Shown: positions 47,901 to 50,900, counted from the first letter of the stretch. The stretch is 64,000 nucleotides of DNA from Escherichia coli (GCF_024298765.1 NZ_CP101210.1); one strand, 5' to 3'. Numbers: made by a program.

Positions 47901-50900
47901 AGCGCCCTGCATCTTGAGCCCTGGCAGGGTAATGGACTGGTTCATTTTTCCAGGCGGACGCCTTTCCGTAAACCGACATCATCTGATGCTCGCCCTTCTT
48001 CCGATGATACGCCTTTGTCGGGTGGATGTTCTGAAACCAGGAAGGTTTCAGACAAAAAGTCTGGTGAAGCCGCTGTTCTCTGGATCAAGCGTGGTGATGT
48101 GGAAGCGATGCAGAAAGCCCGGAACAGAGCCAGTTATCTCGTGAAAAATGAAACGAAGTTGCATGATGGTTCAGGTCAACGTAATTATGGTTGCAGTCGT
48201 GGGCCGGGGCGTCTACTGGATGGCAGGTGAACCCTGTAAAACAGCATCCGATGCCTGAGTTTATGCCAACGCCCTTAGCTCGCTTTCTGAAAAGTCGTCC
48301 TGAAGTAATGCAATGTATTGCCATCTACTTCCGTTCGTGACACATAAGTCGAAAAACGTTTGGTTGTTCTGGTTATTTGCATTTACTGCCATTCATAGAA
48401 ATGAACAGATCGATTGGTAGGACTCAAATGTTATAGCGTCTCTCTTCTCATAGTCTGCTTTGTACCAGACGCGGAATCCCCTAATGCTGGTGTACAGGTT
48501 CTGACTCATTTCCTCCCCCACTTTCATCCCGTTATACTGTGAAAAAAGGAGGTAGGCGTGAAACTGAAAATGCAGGATTTGAGGCTGTTTAATATCGTGT
48601 TCGAGAGCGATCCTGGCTGGATACTGGATTTCTCTAACCGCACCTTGTCTGCTTTTTTCGATGAAGAATTGAACATTGATATTGATGATGAACGTTATCA
48701 GAAAGAGGGGGCGTCAAAAGCAAAACGAGTTAGATGCTTGCTGAAACAGGTTGATCGTGAGACCGCTCTGCGGGTTCTTGGTGCGCTCTGGCAGTATAAA
48801 ACGGAATCCATGCCTGAACTGGCTGAACAAAGCCGTAATGACTATCTTGCACTGATTTCCCGCTTAGAAAACGCTGGCACCGATGAAGCCAAAGGCGTTA
48901 AGCCTGTCCAGGCATGGCATGGTGTTGACTGGCATTCACTTATCGCTGAAATGAACGAGATGAAATCTCTGCCGCCACATCCACGTGGTTTTCGGTTTGA
49001 AGCCTGGCTTGCTGAACTGTTCAGTATCTTTAAGCTTGCTCCTCGTTCGTCTTTCCGAAATACAGGCGAACAGATTGACGGAAGTTTCCGACTGAATGAT
49101 GAATTTTACCTGATGGAGGCAAAGTGGCATCAGAAAAGAACGTCGGCTGCCGACCTCCATGTATTTGAAGGAAAGCTCAGTACCAAGGCAACCTGGACAC
49201 GCGGTGTTTTTATCAGTTGGATGGGGTTTACGCCTGAAGGCCTGACGGCTTTTGGTAAAGGGAAGCGGGTTATCTGTGTCAGTGGTTATGATCTTTACCA
49301 CTCACTGAATCATAGGATCCCTTTACCCGACCTTCTGGATGCTAAAACCCGGCACGCGGCTGAAACGGGAGAGCCCTATGCTGAGTTCGACCGACTATAT
49401 GCACTGAAAGACAAACAGTTCGGCACGCTGAAATAACGGGTTGGGAAGCGATGACCTGCTCCCCGTTGTTTCACACAAAATCGTGTACAGGGTCGAAGTT
49501 CTGACTCAATGTGCTGGCTGAACTGAAAAACAGCGGTCTGAACGATATCCTTATCATTTGTGCAGATGGCCTGAAAGGCTTCCCAGATGCCATCAACACA
49601 GTATATCCGGAGACCCACATCTAGTTATGCATCGTGCATATGGTGCGCAACAGTCTGCGCTTCGTGTCATGGAAGGACTACAAAGCCGTCACTCGCGACC
49701 TGAAAGAGATTTAATCAGGCACCCACGGAAGAGGCAGGCTAGCAAGCACTAGATAAGCCGACGCTGGCAGGCTAACTGGCCGAATCTACCACGTTCTTCG
49801 CTTATCTGACGGACATCCGCAAAGTGATCTATACGACAAATGCCATCGAGTCACTAAACAGTGTGATCCGCCATGCGATCAAAAAGCGTAAAGTGTTCCC
49901 GACAGACGACTCGGTGAAAAAAGTGGTGTGGCTGGCAATCCAGTCTGCGTCCCAGAAATGGACAGTGCCATTGAAGGACTGGCGTATGGCAATGAGTCGC
50001 TTTATTACCGAGTTCGGTGACCGCCTGAGCGATCACCTTTAATGTGGCAGCAATTACACAGAATTGTTTACAGATTCGTTATAACGAACCTCTGTACATC
50101 ATTATGAAACAGACTTATACTTACATAAAATATGGATAATTTTAATTTAGGTTTATTACTATTATTATACTCACTCCCTTTTTGATATAATCTCTATTGT
50201 TATTTACTTCCTGTCTTTACTCACTCTCTATCTTTACGATTATATTCACTCTATCGTTACACATTCCATTAGTATTACTCTTGTTATCGTATCCACTCCA
50301 TCCCCCTCAATCATAATTACTGTAACTCATATGATGTTCGGATAAGTTATTCTCTACTACGCTATTGCTGATATCTATCTGTTCCTGTTTTCAGTGAAAT
50401 AATAATTTATTTTAATTTTATCCATCATGAGCTGCATTTGCTTAACAATGATTGTTTATCTGATATGTTTTAACTATTCTGGTAAATATCAATACTTCTG
50501 TCATCACTGATTAACCGAAAGTTTACTCTTTGATAAGGTATCCATGATTCTGTAACGATTAACAGAGCTGGATAAACAACAGAATCAACAGAGTGAATTC
50601 CTGATTATGTTTGTTTCGGGTTGTATTGTTTAAGATGCAGAGTAAAAATCATGCCAGTGGTATTTTTTACTCTGGTAATGTGTGCGGTTAACGTTCATGT
50701 CCTTAAGAACAGATTGGATGAGGGCGTATAAGTTTATTGTGTTGGCCTTGTACACGTTTTTGCAGACTCACTGAGAGCAAGTTTGTAGTTTATGATGTTA
50801 TTAGTCGTAATATTTTTCCTAACCGCCTGACAGCGGGATTACAGTTCGTATTTTTCTGTATTTCACTGTGTTGTATTGAATCTGTATTTTCTTCGCGCCT

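Follow-up and report, generated by a model that had tools for sequence, protein, structure and literature searches.

A single-gene protein joining an AbiJ-NTD2-type domain to an Mrr-type predicted DNase in the variable module of an Escherichia coli CP4-like island

A stretch of 64,000 nucleotides of Escherichia coli DNA (NZ_CP101210.1; referred to as the window, with positions counted from its first letter) contains, in the variable cargo of a CP4-like island, a gene for a 292 amino acid protein (the nuclease protein). By sequence and model, its C-terminal module is predicted to be a DNase of the Mrr/FokI-type PD-(D/E)xK class with an intact, conserved catalytic site, while its N-terminal domain (NTD) corresponds to AbiJ-NTD2 by every property tested. 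On balance we lean towards a single-chain, two-module conflict protein in which the NTD would be the control module of a latent Mrr-type DNase, serving in defence or in conflict between mobile elements. The original prediction, made from the DNA sequence without database searches, had proposed an orphan Mrr-like nuclease-domain protein carried as cargo, and this overall interpretation was supported.

By profile, motif and modelled fold, the C-terminal half is assigned to the Mrr_cat family of the PD-(D/E)xK superfamily. Pfam Mrr_cat (PF04471) matched residues 144-248 (E 6.5e-5) and, when homologues were scanned singly, 64 of 67 matched the same family at E <= 1e-3, the best at 1.1e-10. Motif conservation was counted in an alignment of these 67 homologues, with identity down to 31%; residues G144, E148, D174, G175, E187, A188 and G216 were found to be invariant, while position 189 is lysine in 65 sequences and arginine in the remaining two (see Table 1 for the codons). 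The Mrr catalytic motif was thus present as originally proposed, and its conservation among homologues, which had been set beforehand as a test, was borne out. An AlphaFold2 (AF2) model built on the same alignment (mean predicted local distance difference test score (pLDDT) 94.0, predicted template modelling score (pTM) 0.83) returned a restriction-endonuclease-like alpha/beta core for this module, the nearest folds being those of the R.BspD6I small subunit (score 11.7), N.BspD6I (11.2) and FokI (11.1), followed by HindIII (10.7), AspBHI (9.4) and Can1/Can2 (9.2). As the predicted fold is that of a PD-(D/E)xK nuclease, the nuclease interpretation stands.

An exhaustive representative search identified 2650 clusters at E <= 1e-3. 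The signatures RGxxFE, GEQIDGSF, EAKW, RGxFIS and KxRxAAETG mark the module, on sequence grounds, as an Mrr_cat subfamily of its own, which is also found behind other N-termini. A sister clade of approximately 305 amino acids carries the same nuclease module behind an NTD of approximately 150 amino acids that has no Pfam match; no kinship of that NTD with AbiJ-NTD2 was found (hhalign probability 0.1%). Plasmid-borne relatives that appear to consist of the nuclease alone were considered as evidence that cells tolerate the module in the absence of its NTD, and were rejected as they are remnants of the full gene truncated by ISKpn26 or other insertion sequences (IS) in Klebsiella.

The N-terminal region had been described as unrecognised, which is correct in that it belongs to no Pfam family but not in the wider sense, as it matches AbiJ-NTD2 in the properties compared. 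Residues 1-124 returned nothing in Pfam, NCBIfam, PADLOC, PHROGs or PDB sequence searches, the full protein and its profile gave nothing useful in sequence searches of PDB, NCBIfam, PADLOC and PHROGs, and a word-index search with the NTD profile returned short fragments only. A separate AF2 model of residues 1-98 (pLDDT 91.5) had six helices and a short strand after helix 1; helices were placed at residues 5-15, 27-38, 54-64, 67-84 and 86-97 in the NTD models, and the strand at residues 18-20. When this model was searched against AFDB50 using Foldseek, matches were obtained to the N-termini of Mrr proteins, of proteins with an 'Abortive infection protein-like C-terminal domain' (Abi_C), and of TIR, DUF4145 and CHP02391 proteins, at 23-47% identity and a query TM score of approximately 0.8; the Mrr fusions came from Alphaproteobacteria, a myxobacterium (Cystobacter) and Gammaproteobacteria.

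Direct sequence comparison gave the same relationship. A tblastn search of plasmids with the NTD reached genes annotated "abortive infection family protein", and WP_015060232.1 from a Klebsiella quasipneumoniae plasmid, the C-terminus of which is Pfam Abi_C (E 4.3e-13), aligned with the NTD over 88 residues by BLASTP (38% identity, E 5e-13) and with the NTD profile over its residues 1-91 by hhalign (probability 99.6%, E 1.1e-23). In addition, a scan of IMG/VR identified twelve open reading frames (ORFs) in which the same NTD precedes C-termini of approximately 150 amino acids bearing Rx4-6H HEPN signatures of at least three kinds. Residues G20, L23, F25, S26, I42, S53 and K54 are invariant across these ORFs and the Mrr protein. 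HEPN proteins with this NTD, of the Abi type, adjoin restriction-modification (R-M) systems. The linker between the two modules (residues 105-124) is far more variable, with 10-70% identity among orthologues, a ratio of non-synonymous to synonymous substitution (dN/dS) of 0.19-0.74 as against 0.06-0.08 in both domains, and no regular secondary structure in the model.

An AbiJ-NTD2 fusion to an Mrr-family restriction endonuclease was catalogued in silico by Anantharaman, Makarova, Burroughs, Koonin and Aravind in 2013 (Table 2 of that paper, exemplar gi 91784007; PMC3710099), who listed the domain as fused to AbiJ HEPN, Ymh HEPN, Mrr-family endonuclease, HKD and TIR domains, noted that it is often wrongly absorbed into the DUF3644 model, and proposed a sensor-effector, Abi-like logic for AbiJ-NTD fusions. 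That paper holds no experiment, distribution or context for the AbiJ-NTD2–Mrr fusion. The label "DUF3644" was indeed found on relatives of the nuclease protein in some databases. Identity of the N-terminal region with AbiJ-NTD2, as represented by the exemplars gi 91784007 and BF1118 (gi 60680647), is inferred from the matching properties. The NTD is found ahead of DNase, RNase (HEPN) and TIR effector domains, and the DNase module in turn occurs behind other NTDs; this two-way modularity is the sensor-effector logic proposed in 2013 (PMC3710099). One further arrangement was observed on a metagenome contig of 3.9x coverage (L048, 1523-2452, P0161), where the first approximately 90 residues of the NTD (92% identical) precede a SAVED domain and take the place of the nuclease part that a CBASS effector usually has, with SMODS, ThiF and JAB genes directly following; this protein is a chimera produced by natural domain swapping or else an artefact of the assembly.

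The 292-residue ORF is present exactly as originally described. In genomes 100% identical to the window over 48300-49700, the RefSeq Prokaryotic Genome Annotation Pipeline (PGAP) calls the same 879-nucleotide coding sequence (CDS), WP_000769114.1, as a "restriction endonuclease". The start codon is GTG, with a GGAGG Shine-Dalgarno (SD) sequence five bases 5' of it (48548-48552), and the Klebsiella orthologue has ATG at the aligned position. In a pairwise Nei-Gojobori comparison with the orthologue from a Klebsiella IncR plasmid (dS approximately 1), dN/dS was 0.070 over the whole gene, 0.076 for the NTD (residues 1-104) and 0.055 for the nuclease module (residues 125-292). Purifying selection acts on both domains, and the gene is for that reason a selected coding gene and no chance ORF.

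These values also bear on whether the gene is a decaying or functionless passenger retained by hitch-hiking. The pseudogene and IS debris around it (the IS1414/astA remnant, a YagK fragment and an IS21 fragment) would fit such a fate, as would truncated copies, which are frequent on Klebsiella plasmids and within E. coli clusters. We regard this as very improbable, as the present copy is full length with every conserved residue, dN/dS is 0.05-0.08 at a dS near 1, a 98%-identical cluster has 1063 member sequences, and the full-length two-domain architecture is kept down to 31% identity, with Mrr fusions found in the lineages given above. The selection analysis already largely refutes it.

Nine independent contexts of the nuclease gene were compared: the E. 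coli leuX island; a 62-kb plasmid-like E. coli record with the same CP4 block (L025); IncFII plasmids, with a 4-bp overlap between the start and a resolvase gene and with an EcoRII R-M pair farther upstream; Yersinia plasmids, where the gene adjoins a Tn3 or tyrosine recombinase with an Abi_2 gene nearby; a Pectobacterium integrative and conjugative element (ICE); an Acinetobacter island with an AlpA gene; Aeromonas, where it adjoins HipA fragments; Enterobacter kobei, where it lies between a DUF4238 gene and a KAP NTPase; and a Klebsiella IncR plasmid, where it is beside vapBC. No partner gene, methylase or conserved antitoxin neighbour was shared across the nine, so that the description of the gene as an orphan was upheld by its homologues; the EcoRII pair on the IncFII plasmids is a complete, separate system. 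DNA homology among the E. coli, Klebsiella and E. kobei copies extends only from approximately 70 nucleotides 5' of the start to just past the stop codon, which indicates that the gene moves as a minimal unit. A divergent 44-amino-acid ORF with a strong SD sequence (48393-48527, minus strand) was considered as a partner or antitoxin and was rejected, as the DNA preceding the Klebsiella and E. kobei orthologues shows no conservation of it.

Within the short conserved upstream block, alignment of the E. coli, Klebsiella IncR and E. kobei sequences revealed a TATACT -10-like box (48533-48538) in addition to the SD sequence. A consensus promoter scan gave no sigma-70 site on the strand of the nuclease gene, and the promoter and terminator scan gave no convincing signal; it is from the conserved block that a promoter belonging to the gene itself is proposed. 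A bipartite direct repeat was also observed to flank the gene at 48490-48508 (upstream copy GTGTACAG-GTTCTGACTCA) and 49483-49508 (downstream copy GTGTACAG-GGTCGAA-GTTCTGACTCA), where shuffled sequences would be expected to give approximately 0 matches. The repeat was considered as cassette ends or att sites and was rejected: it is restricted to the copies of the gene in the E. coli island (L001, L025), is absent near other orthologues, and has its downstream copy within the IS1414 transposase fragment.

The main rival reading is that the protein is, in the manner of E. coli Mrr, a type IV (modification-dependent) restriction endonuclease, in which the NTD would read methylated, hydroxymethylated, glucosylated or phosphorothioated DNA and Mrr_cat would cut nearby, with unmodified host DNA being spared. 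The Mrr_cat domain and the lack of an adjacent cognate methylase in all nine contexts would both be expected of such an enzyme. However, no dedicated modified-DNA-binding domain (Mrr_N winged helix, SRA, YTH/EVE or SBD) was found in the protein, and the NTD has no similarity to reader domains, is acidic, and is fused to HEPN and TIR effectors as well. We therefore consider this reading unlikely.

A second rival places the gene in the service of the mobile element that carries it, through degradation of rival plasmids, post-segregational killing, maintenance or exclusion, or help in recombination beside resolvases. Its distribution, almost wholly on plasmids, ICEs and islands, speaks for this: 1420 of 72,556 plasmid records matched (345 at full length, mostly from Klebsiella, with full-length plasmid copies also in Serratia, Enterobacter and others), as against only 20 matching loci among 2.9 million viral contigs in IMG/VR, and none of 50,697 INPHARED phage records matched the nuclease gene. 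Among complete E. coli genomes, 409 of 5426 (approximately 7.5%) carried at least 80% of positions 48300-49700. Linkage to recombinases points in the same direction. In the IncFII/Yersinia subclade (approximately 48% identical; L002-L007, 5354-6004 / 6001-6873, also H85-H87), found on plasmids of Enterobacter, E. coli and Yersinia, the 4-bp overlap is between the start of the nuclease gene and the stop of an upstream 216-amino-acid serine recombinase (resolvase) gene, which suggests translational coupling, and hence that the two are co-translated in that subclade; the Tn3 or tyrosine recombinases of the Yersinia plasmids are a further instance of such neighbours. On the other hand, recombinase linkage is confined to that one subclade and is absent in E. 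coli, Klebsiella IncR, E. kobei, Acinetobacter, Aeromonas and Pectobacterium, no antitoxin-like gene adjoins the nuclease gene as would be expected in an addiction module, and the families that share the NTD are Abi-type proteins beside R-M systems. This explanation is accordingly rated as doubtful, slightly below the type IV one, although it overlaps the best explanation in that anti-plasmid defence is also a conflict between mobile elements.

The explanation we favour, a sensor-like control module joined to a latent DNase, would operate as follows. The C-terminal Mrr/FokI-type PD-(D/E)xK DNase would be the effector, and the N-terminal AbiJ-NTD2 would be the control module, responsible for trigger sensing, for assembly, or for both. 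In an uninfected cell the nuclease would be latent; an invader cue (a protein of a phage or plasmid, or a state brought about by infection) would act via the NTD, which would then release or assemble the nuclease domains, probably by pairing in the manner of FokI cleavage domains, and the DNA that is cut would be either that of the invader only or all cellular DNA, as in abortive infection. The gene moves between plasmids, ICEs and CP4-type islands as a minimal, self-contained unit, together with a leader that is presumably its own. Since the gene is carried without a methylase or antitoxin, its nuclease must be latent or non-self-specific. As the NTD is also joined to effectors with substrates other than DNA, it is more likely to be a trigger sensor or an assembly or regulatory module than a DNA reader, and activation is probably via oligomerisation, because the nearest folds are pairing-dependent, non-specific cleavage domains (FokI, BspD6I). 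A control role is backed by selection on the NTD that is as strong as on the nuclease (dN/dS of 0.076 and 0.055, respectively), and a role in conflict by the neighbours of the gene, which include EcoRII R-M, Abi_2, DUF4238 with KAP NTPase, HipA fragments, VapBC and an ICE antirestriction gene. Latency, a trigger, NTD-mediated activation, dependence on dimerisation and a phenotype in defence are all proposed features of the protein.

The placement of the gene between a GTPase/WYL block and an AlpA regulator was as predicted (Table 1).

Table 1. Coordinates of the nuclease gene, its parts and the surrounding features of the island in the window
Feature	Position	Strand	Evidence or remark
Complete nuclease CDS, 292 amino acids plus stop	48558..49436	+	ORF list; identical PGAP CDS; dN/dS
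Upstream block, presumed own promoter and leader	48490..48557	+	Kept in orthologues from unrelated contexts
N-terminal AbiJ-NTD2-type helical domain, residues 1-104	48558..48869	+	Signature G20, L23, F25, S26, I42, S53-K54, R57
Fast-evolving linker, residues 105-124	48870..48929	+	
Mrr_cat / PD-(D/E)xK nuclease module (predicted), residues 125-292	48930..49433	+	Includes conserved C-terminal helix K263-x-R265-x-A-A-E269-T-G
Codon E148, first acidic residue of the catalytic core, helix alpha-1 (RGFRFEAWL)	48999..49001	+	67/67 conserved
Codon D174, catalytic Asp of PD (GEQIDGSF)	49077..49079	+	67/67 conserved
Codons E187-A188-K189, (D/E)xK motif (EAKW)	49116..49124	+	E187 67/67, A188 67/67, K189 65/67
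3.1-kb variable module: nuclease gene, degraded IS1414/astA remnant, AT-rich DNA	48320..51423		blastn vs strain 33E
WYL regulator	42911-43591	-	PADLOC WYL E 2.6e-18
GTPase	43794-44678	-	
376-amino-acid ORF	44863-45993	+	~33-37% GC; Cys-rich N-terminus (CVRKNCNN...CRKH)
YfjJ/Gp2-family gene	47499-48230		
Degraded IS1414 (IS256-family) transposase remnant with in-frame stops	~49500-50050		
astA (heat-stable enterotoxin EAST1) inside IS1414 remnant	~49587-49703		Annotated in 100%-identical genomes
Truncated YagK/YfjJ-family fragment	51113-51490	+	Directly upstream of AlpA-like gene
AlpA-like gene	51559-51795	+	

When the window was compared by blastn with E. coli strain 33E (L049), homology was found to end at 48319 and to restart at 51424, inside the YagK/YfjJ fragment, with approximately 760 bp containing a different ORF in place of the 3.1 kb of the window. 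The status of this DNA as variable cargo, which had been claimed from its position, is thus shown directly by its replacement in strain 33E. The truncated YagK/YfjJ ORF adjoins the AlpA-like gene, and the variable module is accordingly bracketed by two Gp2/YfjJ-type genes. Parts of the island scaffold were present in 3372 of the 5426 E. coli genomes, with at least 80% of 43794-51795 in only 143, and PADLOC returned no match for anything in the variable segment.

Several further features of the island were observed. The 376-amino-acid ORF had no match in any family library; it corresponds to the 'hypothetical protein' WP_000147743.1, is kept beside the GTPase in many E. coli genomes, and is followed by approximately 1.5 kb of AT-rich, apparently non-coding DNA (46000-47500). 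The plasmid-like record among the nine contexts (L025; E. coli pRHB40-C01_2, CP057032.1) is a 62-kb circular 'non-mobilizable plasmid' entry with the order WYL, GTPase, 376-amino-acid ORF, Gp2/YfjJ and nuclease, and has an IS66 element inserted directly 3' of the nuclease gene; it may represent an island after excision, or else a replicon that was assigned wrongly. The ORF pair 33043-33972 (plus strand) and 32313-32963 (minus strand) includes an intact gene for a phosphorothioated-DNA-binding restriction endonuclease (NCBIfam NF045808, E 1e-131; PADLOC HNH and type IV matches), the second ORF of the pair having weak matches to type IV restriction endonucleases. Only pseudogene fragments are present in the corresponding region of strain 13TMH22, and the window probably keeps a functional phosphorothioate-dependent restriction gene at the far end of the island. 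A 682-amino-acid ORF adjoining it (34595-36643, minus strand) has no Pfam, NCBIfam or PADLOC match.

The nuclease protein is an uncharacterised but previously predicted type, and a reasonable and unsurprising candidate for anti-phage or anti-plasmid activity. The finding is incremental, as the literature has contained the fold, the architecture and the 'Abi-like' prediction from 2013 onwards; no experimental study of the AbiJ-NTD2–Mrr architecture was found in the searchable literature. Should the protein prove to be a nuclease that works in defence or conflict, it would represent a very compact single-gene system of 292 amino acids which defence catalogues have missed (no PADLOC match), and one that is common in clinically relevant Enterobacteriaceae, given its presence in the E. 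coli genomes counted above and on hundreds of plasmids. It would also provide the first experimental handle on AbiJ-NTD2, a domain that became joined in evolution to DNase, RNase and TIR effectors; an understanding of how it works with any one of these would probably extend to the rest. In the case of a type IV enzyme, the NTD would instead represent a modified-DNA reader of a new kind.

In PADLOC-DB v2.0.0, no family matched the nuclease protein at E <= 1; none matched seven of eight sister-architecture proteins, nor two Abi_C proteins sharing the NTD. A conserved adjacent antitoxin gene, as in toxin-antitoxin systems, was found in none of the contexts, in keeping with the narrow limits of orthologue homology. 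Mrr_cat effectors are known in Avs, Lamassu and NLR-like systems and in Epona. Unlike the FokI and R.BspD6I cleavage domains, Can1/Can2/Card1, Shedu SduA and the Avs/NLR-like Mrr_cat effectors, the nuclease protein has no CARF, SAVED, STAND or DNA-recognition domain, and, unlike in other sensor-nuclease defence proteins, its control domain is only approximately 100 amino acids long and has no known ligand; dimerisation is a proposed mode of regulation.

The type IV enzymes E. coli Mrr, MspJI/AspBHI and SauUSI resemble the nuclease protein in having Mrr_cat with an E-D-ExK arrangement, no cognate methylase, and the nuclease as the C-terminal of two domains. They differ in that its NTD is unrelated to the Mrr_N winged-helix or SRA readers and is common to RNase and TIR effectors, and in that its nuclease forms a distinct subfamily (GEQIDGSF, EAKW, RGxFIS, KxRxAAETG); no reader domain having been found in it, it is not classed among demonstrated type IV enzymes.

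The closest likeness is to the AbiJ-NTD2–Mrr fusion of 2013 (PMC3710099), with which the protein shares a two-domain layout and a mostly helical NTD of approximately 100 amino acids with a short strand after helix 1, and, through it, to the wider AbiJ-NTD2 class, whose NTD is likewise borne by AbiJ-type HEPN, Ymh-type HEPN and TIR proteins and has attracted the same DUF3644 mislabel. With AbiJ itself (the Lactococcus abortive-infection protein, Pfam Abi_C HEPN) it has in common an N-terminal domain type shared with a subset of Abi_C proteins (hhalign 99.6%), and both are single-gene and solo, often near R-M systems on plasmids. Its effector, in contrast, is a predicted PD-(D/E)xK DNase and not an Rx4-6H HEPN RNase, and there is no Abi_C match. 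As it is without a HEPN domain, the nuclease protein is not AbiJ; it is an architectural analogue of AbiJ rather than a member of that family.

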